Positions 55,931-64,000 of a DNA stretch of 64,000 nucleotides are shown here, in pieces. The translations under genes were made by a program, and so were the position numbers. Numbering within the stretch: the first letter of the stretch is position 1; each line of letters opens with the position of its first letter. The notes beneath the pieces are model-generated. The model worked only from the letters and a program-made list of their open reading frames with translations. It did no database searches and was not told where the DNA came from. This stretch comes from Candidatus Moraniibacteriota bacterium (GTDB lineage Bacteria > Patescibacteriota > Minisyncoccia > Moranbacterales > DUUL01), in NCBI GenBank assembly GCA_041583775.1, contig JBFHFF010000007.1, positions 3,382 to 67,381 of the forward strand, given 5' to 3'.

Positions 55931-56004
55931 GGGGGCGTAGCTCAGCTGGTTAGAGCGATTGCCTGTCACGCAATAGGTCGCCGGTTCGAGTCCGGTCGTC
56001 CCCG
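55931..56004 (+). tRNA. tRNA-Asp (anticodon GUC)
   Basis: Hand-folded: acceptor GGGGGCG/CGTCCCC (one G-U), anticodon stem ATTGC/GCAAT, loop CTGTCAC, T-loop TTCGAGT. Confidence 0.85.
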
Positions 56005-57528
56005 CATACAGAAAACAGCACTCTTTGGAGATGCTTTTTTTGTTTTAGTTATGCCAAAAAAAGAAGGTTCGAAGGTTCGATTTATGGTGCTAAATCCTTG
56101 CATGTCTTCGTGAAGCCAATTGAAGGGTTCGGAGAGTACAAAACTAGTGATTTTTTGATTCTCTATGGTGACATTCGAGGATAGAATAGAGATGATCTCT
56201 TTTTTAATCTTTGGGGTTCCATTTTCGAAAATATCACGAGCAGATTTAACAAATTCTGCTATGAGCTCAATCTTTCCAACAATGTCCTTTTTGTGTGTTT
56301 TTACGTTTTGTAATTTCTCTTCGATTTCCGCTTCTTCACTTCGAAGCTCTGAAAGCCTGCGATTGTAGATTTCAGTTGGGATATAATTATCAATAAACTT
56401 TTCAACCAAGGAGTCTTGCTTTTGATTATTCTGTTTTAAGATTTCCGCAAGCTTTGTTTCTGATTCTTTTCTGTATTTCTGTTGTATAAGCCACTTTTCC
56501 TTTGTTGCAGAAACAATCAAATCCAAAACTTCTGCATCAAAATTGATATTTTGCAAAACGTCTCCAAAGGATAAAATCAATTCTTTCTCCCTTAGATATT
56601 TTTGGGAACAATTCTTTGCTCCTCGTGATTTTGTGCAATGATAATAAACATGACCTTTTTGTTTTTCCGCTGTAATTTTTAATCCACATTCTCCGCAAGT
56701 CATCAGCCCTCTGAAGACAAAGTTTTTTGATTCTTTTACGCTATGAAGATATTTGAAAGGGAAGAGTAGTTTTTGAACTTTCTCGAATTTACTTTTTGTA
56801 ATAATAGGCAAATGACTGCCTTTGTGAATTTGTTCTTTCCAACGGAATAGACCGCAATAAATCGGATTGTTTAGCATACCTTGAATCACTGTTTTTCCAA
56901 TCCTTTTATTTTTATTTGAGCGGAGTCCGTCGTTGTATAATTCATCAGCCAATTCTCTTATTGAAAATTTCTTTGAGCTATACAACTCAAAGGCTTTTTT
57001 GATATAAAAGCTCTTACTTTTATCAAGCTCTAATTTCTTGGTTTTTAGATTTCTGATGTATCCGATGGGAGCACAGCCAGGGTATTCGCCCCGGCGAATC
57101 TTTTCAGCCAAACCTCGTTTTACATTCTTGCTTAAATCTCGAATGTATTGATTCGCCATTCCAAACTCTATGCTTGCAATAACAACATTATCCTCGGGAT
57201 TATAATCCCGTTCAAAAGTTTTAATTCTGCCAATGATTTCTTTTTGAAGTAGCCACTTGATCAATCCTTCATCAACTGGGTTACGAGCCAGCCGATCAAT
57301 TTTCCAACACAAGACACCAACCTTTTTATTTTGCTTGATAAATTCAATCATCTCATTAAACACTGGCCTCCCAGGTTCTTTAGCTGATTTTGACTCTTGG
57401 AAAAGCTTGACCACATTTAACTTTTCCCGCTTAGCAATTTCTTTCATCTCAATGATTTGAGACTGGATTGAAAGAGCTTGGCGGTCTTCACTTTCTGTTG
57501 ATTTTCTCACATAGATTACATAGTCCAT
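55966..57528 (-). CDS. large serine recombinase/integrase; C-terminal about 12 aa are antisense read-through of the tRNA-Asp 3' end, so the true stop is uncertain
   Basis: N-terminal resolvase domain YVIYVRKSTESEDRQ (catalytic Ser), recombinase domain, Zn-ribbon CGECG...YYHC, coiled-coil. Confidence 0.85.
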   Translation of the reverse strand: MDYVIYVRKSTESEDRQALSIQSQIIEMKEIAKREKLNVVKLFQESKSAKEPGRPVFNEMIEFIKQNKKVGVLCWKIDRLARNPVDEGLIKWLLQKEIIGRIKTFERDYNPEDNVVIASIEFGMANQYIRDLSKNVKRGLAEKIRRGEYPGCAPIGYIRNLKTKKLELDKSKSFYIKKAFELYSSKKFSIRELADELYNDGLRSNKNKRIGKTVIQGMLNNPIYCGLFRWKEQIHKGSHLPIITKSKFEKVQKLLFPFKYLHSVKESKNFVFRGLMTCGECGLKITAEKQKGHVYYHCTKSRGAKNCSQKYLREKELILSFGDVLQNINFDAEVLDLIVSATKEKWLIQQKYRKESETKLAEILKQNNQKQDSLVEKFIDNYIPTEIYNRRLSELRSEEAEIEEKLQNVKTHKKDIVGKIELIAEFVKSARDIFENGTPKIKKEIISILSSNVTIENQKITSFVLSEPFNWLHEDMQGFSTINRTFEPSFFGITKTKKASPKSAVFCMRGRPDSNRRPIA

Positions 57529-57849: not shown

Positions 57850-58730
57850 CGCTACAACAAATTGCTCGTCTTTGAATTTTTAAATTCATAAAAATTCACT
57901 TCCAACGCAACTTTGTTTCCGCTTCGTTCCGTTCGTACATTGCTTGTTTCAGGCTGTTCAAAATGGTAAGCGTCCGGAGGGCACGCTATCCTCGAGCACT
58001 CCTCGAGACTTTGTTTTTCGTTCCTGTGCCACTCCGAAAAACAAGACTTCTCCGAGATGCTCTGCGTCGCTTTGGCATTGTTAGAAATTAACAATGCGCA
58101 TTGATTGTCACTGCATAAGCGCCAGCCTTCGGCATCCCCACCCGCCAGTATTTTATTGTTTGCCTGCTTGTTAAGGTTTCAGGTAGATTAGGGCAAAAGA
58201 CGTAAAGGGATTCTCTCCATTCCACTCAACTCACAAAATCAAAATTCAGAAAAATCCAAAATGGATGAAAAATGAAAAAGTTTTTTCGCTGTGCTTCAAA
58301 ACACTTTCATTTTTCCACAAAGGTCTTTTTTTTGTTTGGATTTTTTTCTGAATTTCGCTTTTGTTCGTTCAGTTCCATTCCGTTCACCCTCGCACAACAG
58401 AAATTTTGCGACATTCCAATTTTTCCTTCCTTCGCTTTCTGGCTTTTTTCTCGTGGGGACCCCCGCCCCTCTCCAAAAAATCTGAAATCGAAGAGGAAAA
58501 ATGGAACATCGCAAGAATTTGTGTTGTGCGACATCTTTTGCGTGCGTTGATTATGCGTTGTCCCCCCAAACCTGCTAGCCAAGGGCAACAAGCTCCGCGT
58601 CTGTAAACAATTTCCCGTTTGATGTGGCATTGCTTCCTTGGAACTGCCAGCTACCACAAACGGACGGCGGAAAACCTTATCCCTTGGAAAGCGCGCTGAA
58701 TAATTGTAATCGAAATTATTCAGCGTATGC
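57850..58730. other. GC-rich non-coding block; candidate large structured RNA or decayed foreign DNA
   Basis: Roughly 50% GC by eye versus about one-third in flanks; only short mutually overlapping ORFs in all six frames; perfect palindromes CAATGCGCATTG (58092-58103) and CGCTGAATAATT-N8-AATTATTCAGCG (58694-58725). Confidence 0.35.
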
Positions 58731-58884
58731 TTCGCTTAATCAACTTATATTTCTGAAAAGAACTGAAGAATAATATTACCCGATCGAATTCTGAAGCTAG
58801 GGTAGCATGGAAGCTGTTTCGAAGTTTGTTGGTTTCGACTGTTCCGCAATTTTAGAATTCTAAAAAGTGTTCTTTGAAAAAACA

Positions 58885-58940
58885 CTACCTTGTTTATACT
58901 TACTTATATATATACTTATACTTAAGTATAAGTAAGGTAG
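58885..58940 (-). terminator. long hairpin (20-bp perfect palindrome ACTTATACTTAAGTATAAGT flanked by CTACCTT/AAGGTAG) downstream of the minus-strand gene ending at 58960
   Basis: Palindrome 58914-58933; followed on the minus strand by TGTTTTTTC. Confidence 0.45.
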
Positions 58941-58959
58941 TTTAGAATCGATTTCTTAC

Positions 58960-59379
58960 TTACACTTTCTTTTTGCTTCTTTTTCTTTGTGATTTCATTA
59001 CCATCTCATGATTGAAATAGTTGTTCATTGCAGGGCAGTTAAGAAAATCAATAGTTCTGCAAAAAGTTTCTTCACCTTTTTTGCAATTAGATTTTAAACA
59101 GTCCCATTTAGAATCATCCCTTGTTAGCATTGGACATGTTTTCTTGTCCAATATGTGATCAAGAATTTTTTTGATGTCTACATCAATGCATTTTTCAATT
59201 AACTCTTCGCTGATTTCTTCTAGAGGTATCCCTTTGAGAATCCGGGCAGCTATTTTTTCTGCTGCAAGATCCTTAACATCTTCTTTTTCGCAAGCTTCTT
59301 TTTTTCGATTTTCTACAAATAGTTGCTTGTCTCTCTCTGATTTTTCCATTATTTCTTTTGCTGTCATTTTTTTTCTCAT
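58960..59379 (-). CDS. hypothetical protein with Cys-rich C-terminus (element cargo)
   Basis: KKTCPMLTRDDSKWDCLKSNCKKGEETFCRTIDFLNCP; N-terminus overlaps the upstream ORF. Confidence 0.45.
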   Translation of the reverse strand: MRKKMTAKEIMEKSERDKQLFVENRKKEACEKEDVKDLAAEKIAARILKGIPLEEISEELIEKCIDVDIKKILDHILDKKTCPMLTRDDSKWDCLKSNCKKGEETFCRTIDFLNCPAMNNYFNHEMVMKSQRKRSKKKV

Positions 59380-59647
59380 TTTTTTTATTTCTAATTATTA
59401 AATTATCTATATTTTTTTCAGCTGTCCTGATGACTTCGATAAGCCTTTCAAAACGCGCTGTGGCTTTTATAGCTCGATGTGGAGCAGTGCGCAGGTATTC
59501 TTTGGATAAAGATATTAAATCCTTAAAATATCCTTCATTTTGCCACGCTATGAGCCCCGTGCGCTTCTTAACCTTCCTTTCCAAGATAAAGTTGTTGTGG
59601 ATTATCTTAATCCTGACTTCTTTGTCGATTGGAATAATTTTTTCCAT
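59273..59647 (-). CDS. hypothetical protein (element cargo); 3' part may be a frame-overlap artefact
   Basis: MEKIIPIDKEVRIKIIHNNFILERKVKKRTGLIAWQNEGYF...; Lys/Arg-rich tail in the overlap zone. Confidence 0.35.
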   Translation of the reverse strand: MEKIIPIDKEVRIKIIHNNFILERKVKKRTGLIAWQNEGYFKDLISLSKEYLRTAPHRAIKATARFERLIEVIRTAEKNIDNLIIRNKKNEKKNDSKRNNGKIRERQATICRKSKKRSLRKRRC

Positions 59648-59984: not shown

Positions 59985-60929
59985 TCAGCTTAATCGAATA
60001 GTATTTGTTTCTTTATCGATTATGATTTCGAATGGTTTAATCTTATTTCCTTTTTGTAATGTTTTTTTAGCGTTTTCAAGTGCTTTTAATTTCTCATCTT
60101 GGTATGATTTAGAATCATAGTGCTTCCCATGTCGTATCGCTTCATAAGCATCATCAATCGAAATATTTTCATCAACTCCTTTTGTAGTTAGAAATTTTAA
60201 AAGTAGGTAATGCCTGGAATTAGCATTGCCAATTTTTTTTCTTTGGGAACTATTCTTTATTTGAAAAAAGCCAATATTGCCACTCAAAAAACATTTGGGA
60301 GATCTTTTTCTCTTAGTTTTTTCTTTTAATCCAGTTTCTTCTAAAAACTTATTTTTCACTTCTAGCGCTATTCTGTAAAAATTATCATTCTTGGGGTTGT
60401 TTAAATTATAAATAACTTTAATTTCAAGATATTTTTGTTTCTCTAAAATCAAAAGACTCTCAAATAATCTATAACCATTTTCAATTTCGTTATCATTTAA
60501 AGAAAGAGTTGTGCTTATTTTTCCTGCTAGCTTCTGTTCTATTTTGGCAATAAAATATCTTTTTTGTTCATTGAACTGATAATAATCCTCATCAATTGGT
60601 ATTAATTTTCCATCAGTAAAGCTTTTTAAATGTTTTTCTATCTCTTCCCAAATAACTTCAATTGATTTTTTTGTTATTTCAATTTCTGGATAATTATTTT
60701 TTATTAATTTTACTTTCAAACCAGTATCTCGCTCGAGGTTTAGAAGAAGATTGAGGAGCTTTTCAATTCCTAGTTTCTTGAATACAAGCCTTTTTAATTG
60801 ATCAGGTTCAATTATGCCTGGAGTTTTTTCTGGATAATCAATTAATTTCAAAAGCAAGAAGATGAAATCATTTGAAAATAAGCGATTTTGGAAAAGTGGC
60901 GTATTAGATTTTTTTGTTTTTTTATTCAC
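59985..60929 (-). CDS. hypothetical 314-aa protein, divergent from the downstream two-gene operon
   Basis: Clean ORF with AT-rich codon usage like the host; no recognisable motif. Confidence 0.55.
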   Translation of the reverse strand: MNKKTKKSNTPLFQNRLFSNDFIFLLLKLIDYPEKTPGIIEPDQLKRLVFKKLGIEKLLNLLLNLERDTGLKVKLIKNNYPEIEITKKSIEVIWEEIEKHLKSFTDGKLIPIDEDYYQFNEQKRYFIAKIEQKLAGKISTTLSLNDNEIENGYRLFESLLILEKQKYLEIKVIYNLNNPKNDNFYRIALEVKNKFLEETGLKEKTKRKRSPKCFLSGNIGFFQIKNSSQRKKIGNANSRHYLLLKFLTTKGVDENISIDDAYEAIRHGKHYDSKSYQDEKLKALENAKKTLQKGNKIKPFEIIIDKETNTIRLS

Positions 60930-60992
60930 CGCGATTTTTCTTGAGTAATTATGTACTTAATGATAACATAAGTAAAATTATAATTCTGCTCT

Positions 60993-61943
60993 ATGGGACA
61001 AAAAATTTCATCTGTAATGAAATCAAGACGAGGAATTTCATATCAAGACAAGTACGTGTTACTTGTTTTTCTTGAAGGTTTAATAGAGGATTTAAATTGT
61101 GAGTCAGATATTTGTTTGTTGGAAGCTAATACGGAATTTTCTTATGGAAGAAACCTTTCCCTTGACATTAGAATGTTATTTTCTGAAAAAGAAGTTATAT
61201 ATGAAGTCAAGACAGGAAAAGCATACAAGGACGATAAAAAGGAAATAGGGAAGTCTCTCGATAGTTTATATGAATATGCGCAAGGAAGATTAGATTTAGG
61301 TGAACCAATCGAGATTAGACTTGTTATTACTCCAGAATTTCGTGAAAAGATCATGTCAGTTTGGTCTCAATTATTGCATATTAATGAGGCTCATAGCGTG
61401 ACCAAAAAGAATTTTTATGGCAAAACAGTTGCTAGTTCCATAAAAGACTTAATAGAAAAACTTGATTTAAAGAAGCTCACCAAGAAAAATTTTGAAAGTT
61501 TTGTTAAAAAAATGAAAATTGAAGTTGGTCCAAAAGATGAATTGCGTGATGGTGGCTCTGAAATTGATGATAGGATACGAGGCAGGATAAGAATGTTATT
61601 GAAAAAATGTCGTTGTGAAAATAATGAAGTTGAAAGTCCTGTTGATTCTATTCAGCTTGAATTAATTGATGTGGTTCGCTTGAGTTCAGAGGGAAGAGTT
61701 ACGGATTTTAAGAAATCTATGATTGATAAACTAATTCAGTGTTTTGCAAGAAAAAAAATACTCGAGAACGCAAGCTATAAACAAGAATTTATCTTTTCTA
61801 ATGAAATAAGCGGATATGAAAAAGACATAAAGTCGCTTTTAACAAAAGAATCTGAGCCTGGTGAAGTCTCGGCGACTAATAGTATGGAAGGTAAACCTCT
61901 TGGAGAAAATAACCAGAATCTTAATGATATAATTCAAATCTAG
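60993..61943 (+). CDS. hypothetical protein with N-terminal PD-(D/E)xK-like (restriction-endonuclease-fold) signature
   Basis: YVLLVFLEGLIEDLNCESDICLLEANTEF...EVIYEVKTGKAY gives D...E-x-K spacing typical of Mrr-like nucleases; the rest has no recognisable domain. Confidence 0.45.
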   Translation: MGQKISSVMKSRRGISYQDKYVLLVFLEGLIEDLNCESDICLLEANTEFSYGRNLSLDIRMLFSEKEVIYEVKTGKAYKDDKKEIGKSLDSLYEYAQGRLDLGEPIEIRLVITPEFREKIMSVWSQLLHINEAHSVTKKNFYGKTVASSIKDLIEKLDLKKLTKKNFESFVKKMKIEVGPKDELRDGGSEIDDRIRGRIRMLLKKCRCENNEVESPVDSIQLELIDVVRLSSEGRVTDFKKSMIDKLIQCFARKKILENASYKQEFIFSNEISGYEKDIKSLLTKESEPGEVSATNSMEGKPLGENNQNLNDIIQI

Positions 61944-61944
61944 T

Positions 61945-64000
61945 ATGAAAACAGATCTATTAAAGAGAATAAATAACGTCATTAGTAAGTCTTCTTATAA
62001 AAAAAATAAGAAGGAAATTTTAAAATGGTTGAAAGATCAGAAATTGGCAGCATATTTAATAAACAAGCTTCAAAAAGAAAAATTAAATGATCTGAAATCG
62101 CTCGATTTTATTCTTGAAGAGGAAATTAAGAAAGAGAATATCTTTCCAATATTTCATATTCTGCAGGAAAATATCAGTGAGAAAAATTGTCAGTTTATCC
62201 TTGATTTTCTTTTTGATAAATTTCCAAGCGCAAAGGAAGAAAAATCACTACGAATAGATGATTTTATTGGTGGAACAGTTAATATTTTGGATATTATTAT
62301 CAAGCAATATCCGGAAAAAATAGAAAGTGTGTATCTGTTGATCAAGTTGATTTTAAGGGTTCATCAAAAGCATTTTAGAGAACTAAGGACACCTCGAAGT
62401 CACGATAAACAAATCATTGCTGATTTGTTACAGAAAATATACTTTGAATATAGAAAGCAAAAAAACATTAAAAGGATTGATGAAATAATCAATCTAATTG
62501 ACTTGGGGTTTGATTTGGTAAGTGATTATAGTGATATGTCTATGTATACTCCCAGTCATATTTTTGAAGTCCTTGAGGATTATATAAGTCTTGATTTTAA
62601 GGCGAACTTTGAAAAGATTTTTGAAATTATCTTAGTTCAATTTAAAAGCAAAGGCAGTTGGTTTGATGGTTGGGAAGGTTTTGGAGGAGGTATCTCGCAA
62701 TTTGGAATAAAATATCATATTAGCGATAGACATTTTGTTGGAAAGGTATTATCTCCTGCCTTGGAAAAGTTTTATTCTGAATCAAAAAATAAACAGGAAA
62801 CCTGGAAGTATATAAGAGAGTGTTATGTGTCAAGAAAGTCAGAAGAAGTCTCAAATAGAAAACCTGACTTTTTGACTCGTTCTACGATAGGTATTGTTTT
62901 GGATCGATATAAAAACTGTAGAGGCAAAAACAAAGAAGAGGCGTTTGAAATTTTGAGAGATTTTATGAAAATGGGGAAAGGAATTCCAAGTAAAACGGAT
63001 CTTATTTTTCAGAAGTTAAAAGAGACTGACTTTAATCTTGATAAAAAATGGAAATTTATAGAAATTTCTTTGAGCTTAGAATGGAATAAAGACAAGCTTC
63101 CTGCGAACATTTTTGTTGAACAGCTCGTTGCTGATTTTGGAAAAGAGAACTATAGACCAGCTATTGAACTTCAAAATAAATGGCTCGAAACAAGAGAGAA
63201 GAGAAAAAAGAAAGTGGGATTTATGGATGATTATACTGTGGAAGCGATTAAGTCTCTTTTGCAGGGAGAAAAAACAAGAAAAGAGGGTCTGAAATTTTTC
63301 GAGTCATATGTTTCAAAGGATATTTTCAGGAATAATTTAGAGCGTTTTGACGTTTTTGATGTTGCTCAAATTTTGGGTGGAATTTTGGAATCTAACTTTG
63401 ATTTTGGTCTTAAAATTTTAAACGAGATTTCTTCCAGAAAAAAAATGACAGAAAATGAACAGGTCTTGGTTTGTAATAGCATAAACAAGATTGACAACAA
63501 AGAGATTCTGCTAAAAATTTACAATAACTTTTTACTTCCTTTTCTTGAAAAGTTAGATAACAATATAGTTAGAATAGAAAGAAGAATTGATAATTCTCAT
63601 GTTAGGGGAGCCCTTGTTGACTTTGGTGATTTACTTGCAAAAGCAGGATATTTTAAAGAAGCTCTGTTTATTGCAGAAATCTTTATTGATGACAAAGATC
63701 CGATTATTGAAAACGAAGAAGATGATCCAAGGGGAGAGCACAATCTACATAAAAGAGCACAAAAAGGTGATGATTTGAATTCAATAACAAGCGTTCGTGG
63801 CAAAGTTTGTTGGCTTTTGCATGAATTTCCAGTTTTGGGTGGTAGAAAATATATTCCTAAAGCTGTGTCTTTAGTTAAAAAGTTATCGAAAGACAATAAT
63901 TATTATGTGAGAAAGCAGGCAACACTCCCTTTAGCAGAATTGGTTCGAGTGAGGAATGCAGTTTTACCAGAAGATAAAACAAAATGGTTTTTGAATAGAG
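61945..64000 (+). CDS. large (>680 aa, runs off the window) alpha-helical repeat-like hypothetical protein, co-oriented with 60993..61943
   Basis: Hand translation from ATG 61945 stays open to the window end; start overlaps the upstream TAG (TAGTATG); no Walker A/P-loop seen. Confidence 0.5.
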   Translation, partial: MKTDLLKRINNVISKSSYKKNKKEILKWLKDQKLAAYLINKLQKEKLNDLKSLDFILEEEIKKENIFPIFHILQENISEKNCQFILDFLFDKFPSAKEEKSLRIDDFIGGTVNILDIIIKQYPEKIESVYLLIKLILRVHQKHFRELRTPRSHDKQIIADLLQKIYFEYRKQKNIKRIDEIINLIDLGFDLVSDYSDMSMYTPSHIFEVLEDYISLDFKANFEKIFEIILVQFKSKGSWFDGWEGFGGGISQFGIKYHISDRHFVGKVLSPALEKFYSESKNKQETWKYIRECYVSRKSEEVSNRKPDFLTRSTIGIVLDRYKNCRGKNKEEAFEILRDFMKMGKGIPSKTDLIFQKLKETDFNLDKKWKFIEISLSLEWNKDKLPANIFVEQLVADFGKENYRPAIELQNKWLETREKRKKKVGFMDDYTVEAIKSLLQGEKTRKEGLKFFESYVSKDIFRNNLERFDVFDVAQILGGILESNFDFGLKILNEISSRKKMTENEQVLVCNSINKIDNKEILLKIYNNFLLPFLEKLDNNIVRIERRIDNSHVRGALVDFGDLLAKAGYFKEALFIAEIFIDDKDPIIENEEDDPRGEHNLHKRAQKGDDLNSITSVRGKVCWLLHEFPVLGGRKYIPKAVSLVKKLSKDNNYYVRKQATLPLAELVRVRNAVLPEDKTKWFLNR

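Follow-up and report, generated by a model that had tools for sequence, protein, structure and literature searches.

In DSR2, a HEAT-like solenoid captures the tail tube protein of a phage and activates an N-terminal SIR2 domain (PMC11850899). Here we describe a pair of adjacent genes, A and B, at the end of a 64,000-nucleotide (nt) stretch of DNA from Candidatus Moraniibacteriota bacterium, a member of the Patescibacteriota (contig JBFHFF010000007.1 of assembly GCA_041583775.1, positions 3,382 to 67,381 of the forward strand; hereafter, the window). The pair is carried by an element of ~11.5 kb at a tRNA-Asp gene, and as its cargo probably constitutes an immune module against phages or other mobile DNA. 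Like DSR2, the A/B family combines an N-terminal effector with a HEAT-like alpha-solenoid of ~1000 residues and has no nucleoside triphosphatase (NTPase), and in DSR2 it is the solenoid that senses a phage protein (PMC11850899, PMC11263360). Unlike in DSR2, the effector is a PD-(D/E)xK nuclease or another exchangeable gene rather than SIR2, and it can be encoded by a gene of its own. The likeness is architectural only: we found no SIR2 domain, and DSR2 appeared neither in profile searches of PDB sequences nor among the top 50 Foldseek hits.

The known effector-plus-repeat sensors, such as Avs, Lamassu, and Hachiman, mostly need an NTPase switch. Avs and other STAND NLR-like proteins resemble the A/B family in having a swappable N-terminal effector (a Cap4-like or Mrr nuclease, or a protease) followed by a long helical repeat sensor, whereas the A/B family lacks the STAND NTPase between effector and repeats; a check of 16 proteins, the window's own and homologues (P0001-P0016), found no Walker A motif (G-x4-GK[ST]). 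A second likeness concerns the nuclease. The Cap4/DUF4297 effectors (Cap4 of CBASS, LmuA, HerA-DUF4297, and AbpA) are of the same type, with the order G-x-x-Y-Q ... E/D ... D ... E-x-K, but the partner of A is a HEAT solenoid free of ATPase and not SAVED, a CD-NTase, LmuB/LmuC, HerA, or a helicase. In the case of CBASS, protein A, whose C-terminal half is helical, has no SAVED match and the element has no CD-NTase gene. In the case of Lamassu, protein B lacks Walker A and is a HEAT solenoid rather than an SMC-like LmuB, and neither protein has a PADLOC match to Lmu. For HerA-DUF4297 (Gao_Her), Hachiman, and AbpAB, the operon and the element contain no ATPase or helicase (HamB, AbpB), and PADLOC gave no match. 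Olokun was also considered and dropped, because a 15-bit OloA match was seen in only one of 14 members and none in the window protein. A and B are unlikely to be the Dallas/DdgA system of Patescibacteria (PMC12366544), since inserts in the libraries of that work averaged 2 kb and the pair takes up at least 3.9 kb.

A first-pass annotation of the window, made by eye, had seen no match to the two-gene defence systems recognisable in this way (parts of Hachiman, Gabija, Septu, and Zorya were missing), and the searches matched no named system. PADLOC, Pfam, and NCBIfam returned none, and the B family as a whole matches no curated profile in these three collections. Profile searches of Pfam, PADLOC, NCBIfam, and PHROGs with gene A, gene B, and a divergent 314-amino-acid (aa) neighbour gave nothing meaningful, PDB-sequence profile searches with alignments A2, A5, and A3 and with the 314-aa gene gave no relatives, and our literature searches found no description of a nuclease-HEAT-solenoid architecture. 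The logic of an effector joined to a repeat sensor is familiar, and the protein family itself, as seen in its sequences, is a candidate new defence family.

The nuclease-like protein and its solenoid partner

The three open reading frames (ORFs) called by the first-pass annotation all exist, and that of gene B stays open to the end of the window (Table 1). The stop codon of A and the start codon of B had been described as overlapping; one base lies between them. Gene B continues ~860 nt past the window end, and its full length of 971 aa is known from P0003 and from a public contig, L001 (homologous loci and proteins are cited below, where necessary, by L and P numbers).

In alignments A2 and A5, residues G14, Q18, D58, E71, and K73 of protein A are invariant and position 48 is acidic (E/D). 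A restriction-endonuclease-fold signature had been proposed for this protein, and two parts of it stand, namely the fold and the E-V-K of YEVKTG (E71-x-K73), but the aspartate of ESDICLLE (D39) is not conserved, the conserved catalytic aspartate being D58 in SLDIRM. In the AlphaFold (AF2) model, with a mean predicted local distance difference test score (pLDDT) of 63 and 70-86 in the core, the topology is the alpha-beta-beta-beta-alpha-beta of the restriction-endonuclease fold, and helix H17-34 and strands E42-51, E55-63, and E67-73 bear the motif residues. This is the Cap4_nuclease/DUF4297 order of a G-x-x-(Y/F)-Q helix followed by an acidic residue, D, and (E/Q)-x-K on three consecutive strands, and the G-x-x-Y-Q motif is common to the A-like proteins, the fused N-domains, and the Cap4-type upstream genes described below. 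The top PDB matches in Foldseek are Lamassu LmuA (9nxx) and HerA-DUF4297 (9c1m), with probabilities of 0.98 and 0.85, followed by other PD-(D/E)xK enzymes, all of them statistically weak. The only close homologue of A that was found is P0002, at 30% identity. A profile of 11 A-like proteins was aligned by hhalign with a sister family of upstream genes (U2) that is positive for PF14130 (Cap4_nuclease), giving a probability of 83% and an expectation value (E) of 9e-6; in this sister family, L021 scores 28.7 bits, above the Pfam gathering threshold of 26.2 bits. We conclude that protein A is a predicted nuclease of the Cap4/DUF4297 type, an assignment for which the evidence of sequence and modelled topology is good and which, as formal family membership, is provisional.

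Protein B is, in its AF2 model (pLDDT 86, predicted template modelling score 0.70), an array of all-alpha repeats, and its Foldseek neighbours are karyopherins, CAND1, SF3B1, and similar HEAT solenoids. A profile search of PDB sequences found no sequence-related solved structure, and a Foldseek search of viral structures returned only weak, generic repeat proteins. Pro, Asp, Arg, and Gly make up most of the near-invariant residues of the family, which do not form a catalytic set, and this pattern is what HEAT repeats conserve. No NTPase domain of Pfam was found in gene B or in the homologues scanned. The earlier description of B as a helical-repeat protein without a P-loop is thus borne out by the model and the missing Walker A motif, and we are confident that B is predicted correctly as a HEAT solenoid with neither a P-loop nor an enzyme signature. 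The same cannot be said of its R-x4-H sequence (RTPRSH, residues 148-153), to which attention had been drawn: R148 is present in 15 of 133 family members and H153 in 12 of 134, and the idea of a HEPN motif was dropped because R-x4-H is not conserved.

Fused relatives, exchangeable partners, and genomic neighbourhood

An exhaustive search with the B profile among 1.84 billion representatives gave 496 clusters at 50% identity (E<=1e-3), and architectures were counted in the best 157 of them. Most B homologues are ~1200 aa long and possess an additional N-terminal domain of ~215 aa that aligns to gene A. Among these 157 representatives, 79 are full-length proteins with the fused N-terminal nuclease, 21 have no N-domain, as in the window, three carry a different N-terminal domain on the B body, two have an extra helix-turn-helix domain ahead of the N-domain, and 52 are C-terminally truncated or other fragments. 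A hidden Markov model built from alignment A2 matches the N-termini of 101 of the 157, and in these 101 fused N-domains the residues corresponding to G, Q, E, D, E, and K of protein A are 97-100% conserved (G in 99, Q in 100), which indicates selection for the active site. In P0091, an A-like protein is joined directly to the B body, and in P0079 and P0088 a different D..ExK (PD-ExK) nuclease takes this place; such fusions argue strongly for a physical cooperation of A and B. Judged from the alignments, A plus B is a split, two-subunit form of a ~1200-aa nuclease-HEAT-solenoid protein. The extra domain in two fused members, P0094 and P0108, is of the XRE type and lies ahead of the nuclease domain, which hints at autoregulation or tethering to DNA.

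A homologue of B is present in 35 of 185,579 species genomes. Upstream sequence is long enough in 29 loci, and in every one of them a gene encoding 190-370 aa ends between -32 and +17 nt from the start of B, so that the tight coupling of A and B noted at first sight extends across the family. The upstream genes belong to six families, unrelated to each other, and two singletons: (i) A-like proteins without direct Pfam support in 10 loci, including L002 and L001, which is the element of the window; (ii) Cap4_nuclease (PF14130, above threshold in L021) in five; (iii) SLFN_AlbA_2 (PF04326, E 1e-16) in seven; (iv) Mrr-like proteins (Mrr_cat, PF04471, weak, E about 0.01) in three; (v) another D..ExK type, recognised by motif and without a Pfam match, in two; (vi) CHAT proteases (PF12770, above threshold in L033) in two; and (vii) singletons with N-terminal hydrophobic segments, putative membrane proteins, in two. 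In many loci, the B protein has a fused N-domain and is preceded by an effector gene as well. The B proteins without an N-domain are accompanied by A-like genes (L001, L002, and L017), a CHAT protease (L033), or a membrane protein (L009), and the last two cases imply that B serves non-nuclease effectors as well. In the pairs L024/L020 and L025/L028, the B proteins are 87% and 91% identical, respectively, and the upstream genes are unrelated. A sister element, which shares the 314-aa backbone gene of the window at 91% identity, has an A-like gene only 25% identical to A. Rapid exchange of a cassette beside a conserved large protein is the pattern of modular immune systems (Avs, Lamassu, and CBASS). 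Compared across these loci, B is always preceded by a tightly coupled gene, and this gene is an exchangeable cassette. It should be mentioned that in two A-like upstream proteins (L007, 7921-8832, and L031, 8253-9158) the position of the catalytic Glu, equivalent to E71, is taken by Gly or Ser, and that the neighbouring large protein in each case retains an intact N-terminal nuclease of its own.

These architectures bear on the second function that the first-pass annotation had offered beside anti-phage defence, that of an addiction or stabilisation module in which B restrains a toxic nuclease, A, that is set free and kills the cell once the element is lost. The description of a nuclease-fold protein and a large helical partner that is not an enzyme, both on an integrative element, does stand, the two genes are tightly coupled, and a serine recombinase is found not only on the ~11.5-kb element but within 7 kb of B in 14 of the 35 loci. 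However, most family members, 79 of about 125 full-length representatives, are single fused polypeptides, and toxin-antitoxin logic needs two products of differential stability, which makes addiction less likely. Protein B is also far larger than any known antitoxin, many of the loci are chromosomal restriction-modification (R-M) islands without a recombinase, and immune systems typically have swappable effectors of this sort, with proteases and membrane proteins among them. We regard addiction as improbable.

The R-M neighbours lie directly upstream of the B loci, on the same strand. They are type IIG enzymes of the Eco57I/MmeI kind in L005, L006, L017, L022, and L035, type I hsdM/S/R genes in L020, L028, and L032, and type III mod-res genes in L013 and L026. 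Accessory defence genes beside hsd genes are familiar from PrrC and RloC, restriction-linked ORFs of type I R-M loci to which L020, L028, and L032 are alike in this respect; PrrC and RloC are ABC-ATPase anticodon nucleases and unrelated to A/B. This neighbourhood is one reason to consider a type IV-like restriction system, in which the HEAT-like solenoid would bind modified or structurally unusual DNA and guide the nuclease without a protein trigger. The HEAT-like repeats of the AlkD type and the HEAT subunits of condensin, which bind DNA, provide a precedent, P0004 has a weak DNA_alkylation (AlkD-like) match (E 0.052), several arginines of the solenoid are near-invariant, and the nuclease triad is fully conserved. 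Against this reading, the conserved Arg, Asp, and Pro are consistent with the canonical HEAT signature, without any need for them to touch DNA, no DNA-binding domain was detected, and the B proteins of L033 and L009, accompanied by a CHAT protease and a membrane protein and without any nuclease, favour signalling to an effector. Such a restriction system is unlikely, in our view, if somewhat less so than an addiction module.

The hosts of the B family are mostly Patescibacteria, and the distribution is patchy over at least eight phyla, with scattered members in metagenome-assembled genomes of Gammaproteobacteria and in Armatimonadota, Margulisiibacteriota, Elusimicrobia, Deltaproteobacteria, and DPANN archaea; this scatter implies horizontal transfer. 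The family was absent from IMG/VR viral contigs, INPHARED phages, and PLSDB plasmids when these were searched. Because HEAT proteins and PD-(D/E)xK nucleases are both known in repair and the family is commonest in Patescibacteria, the pair might be a housekeeping or DNA-repair factor of these bacteria that lies on an island by chance. Against this stand its rarity among the species genomes and its spread over unrelated phyla, the position of the loci on mobile elements and in R-M islands, the swapping of the partner gene between near-identical B proteins, and the 25%-identical variant at the same site in closely related elements, so that a housekeeping role seems very improbable.

The tRNA-Asp element and its other genes

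The integrative setting proposed at first is confirmed, since the 3' end of the gene for a 520-aa large serine recombinase overlaps the tRNA-Asp gene. The public contig L001 (1-11517) is the same DNA continued past the window; beyond 64 kb it completes B and adds four more small genes, and it terminates with GTCCGGTCGTCCC, which repeats 13 nt of the tRNA 3' end. Both GTCCGGTCGTCCC repeats are also points at which independently assembled contigs (Logan) break off. From the repeats and these breaks, the element, with the 3' end of tRNA-Asp on one side and the direct repeat GTCCGGTCGTCCC on the other, is inferred to be ~11.5 kb long and to run from window position 55931 to about 67494. The flanking DNA assembled from sample SRR29257458 ends at window position 56007 and the element forms a separate contig, which suggests a mixed population of occupied and empty sites or a circular form.

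Table 1. Positions of the genes, motifs, and repeats in the window.
Feature	Position	Strand	Description
Element left end	55931..57528		tRNA-Asp 55931-56005 (+) carrying the attachment (att) repeat; large serine recombinase gene 55966-57528 (-)
Divergent 314-aa gene	59985..60929	-	GTG start; element backbone gene, outside the A/B module
Inverted repeat TACTTA-N9-TAAGTA	60954..60974		In the 63-nt region between gene A and the 314-aa gene
Gene A	60993..61943	+	316 aa; predicted Cap4/DUF4297-like PD-(D/E)xK nuclease, then helical C-terminal half; proposed effector subunit
G14-I-S-Y-Q18 codons	61032..61046	+	N-terminal G-x-x-Y-Q motif; G14 and Q18 invariant in the alignments
Gene A predicted active-site codons	61134..61211	+	E48 61134-61136, D58 61164-61166, E71 61203-61205, K73 61209-61211
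A/B junction TAG-T-ATG	61941..61947	+	One-base spacer; stop TAG 61941-61943, start ATG 61945-61947
Gene B, codons 1-685 of 971	61945..64000	+	Predicted HEAT-type alpha-solenoid; proposed sensor/scaffold

The divergent 314-aa gene, listed at first with the A/B operon as element cargo, belongs to the element backbone and not to the module. Only three homologue clusters were found for it. One homologue, in L039 (1190-7882, 'bacterium BMS3Abin15'), has a serine recombinase and three small genes at its side, just as the window gene does, and faces unrelated cargo: an 1186-aa helical protein with a LexA-type winged helix-turn-helix, an HNH_5 nuclease, and a DUF5677 protein. The gene has no homologue in the 35 other B loci, and with the different cargo of L039 this led us to reject it as a component of the A/B system. 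The site between the 314-aa gene and the element end looks like a hotspot for cargo. Beyond the window, L001 8868-11383 encodes proteins of 176, 166, and 369 aa without a Pfam or PADLOC match, and these may be additional defence genes. The first has three predicted membrane segments and its start overlaps the B stop by 16 nt, the second contains a D...E-T-K pattern, and the third contains R-x4-H (RSKYLH). A coupled ORF downstream of B was also considered as a third component of the system and rejected, such ORFs being unrelated between loci.

A palindrome had been placed in a shared promoter region ahead of gene A. The repeat is real (Table 1); a promoter scan gave no score above that of shuffled sequence. 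Locally, TACTTA-N9-TAAGTA is unremarkable, as one of eight comparable 6-nt inverted repeats in 161 nt. In the window as a whole, the motif pair occurs only inside the element, with three matches against 0.05 expected by a post hoc test; the other site is a cluster at 58913-58934 within a palindrome with 25-nt arms (58884-58941), and this palindrome holds seven TACTTA/TAAGTA hexamers within 60 nt. The repeats may be a candidate operator or binding site of an element protein. In a related element, L042, a different inverted repeat (TGTATTT-N14-AAATACA) occupies the same place. A second hairpin (58396-58531) has 16-nt arms and a 110-nt loop, and a plant microRNA model matches both of its strands below threshold. 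The recombinase gene and the small genes are separated by 1.4 kb in which no gene is convincing; both hairpins fall there, and either an origin, an iteron array, or a region that binds a regulator may be represented by them. Further on, a backbone ORF of 124 aa (59273-59647, minus strand) weakly matches a PHROG of phage replication initiation (phrog_154, E 6.7e-5); this ORF and a neighbouring one of 139 aa overlap, and possibly just one of the two is real.

A candidate family of NTPase-free immune sensors

Several observations weigh against a defence role for the pair. The structural matches of protein A are weak (best E 4.5e-3, template modelling score about 0.3, whole-model pLDDT 63); A itself has no significant Pfam match, PF14130 included, and its homologue P0002 scores 14.2 bits; the structure of B matches generic solenoids only, and DSR2 is missing from its top 50 Foldseek hits; R-M genes adjoin about one third of the B loci, not all; A-like partners that lack the Glu equivalent to E71, as in L007 and L031, may be inactive or regulatory; and an addiction role on a mobile element is also possible. 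Even so, we consider that an NTPase-free sensor-plus-effector defence role for A and B has the better part of the probability, perhaps half of which belongs to the sensing of a protein, with direct recognition of DNA as the alternative.

If the pair is an immune module, the following sequence of events can be imagined. The helical C-terminal half of A would dock on the helices at the N-terminus of B, at the place where nuclease and solenoid are covalently joined in the fused forms, and the solenoid of B would both keep the nuclease inactive and serve as the sensor. It might wrap around a phage protein as DSR2 does, or bind aberrant DNA. Binding of this ligand would free or activate the PD-(D/E)xK site (E48, D58, E71, and K73), and the resulting DNA cut by A would destroy the invader or abort the infection.

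Taken together, the data on the A/B family point to a candidate anti-phage system that is previously undescribed. A broader proposal, to which we would give an even chance, is that the B family is an unrecognised class of NTPase-independent immune sensors, concentrated in the Patescibacteria, in which a HEAT solenoid of ~970 residues drives interchangeable effectors. According to this proposal, the effectors would be nucleases, Schlafen-like RNases, CHAT proteases, and membrane proteins, either fused to B or encoded by the upstream cassette, often attached to R-M loci, and the pair in the window would be the minimal split form. To our knowledge, very few defence systems have been described for the Patescibacteria and other ultrasmall episymbionts. 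If the proposal is true, an ATPase-free solenoid sensor with swappable effectors would widen the logic of DSR2 beyond NAD depletion, and a compact system of one or two genes, open to experimental test, would offer a handle on how Patescibacteria sense their phages.

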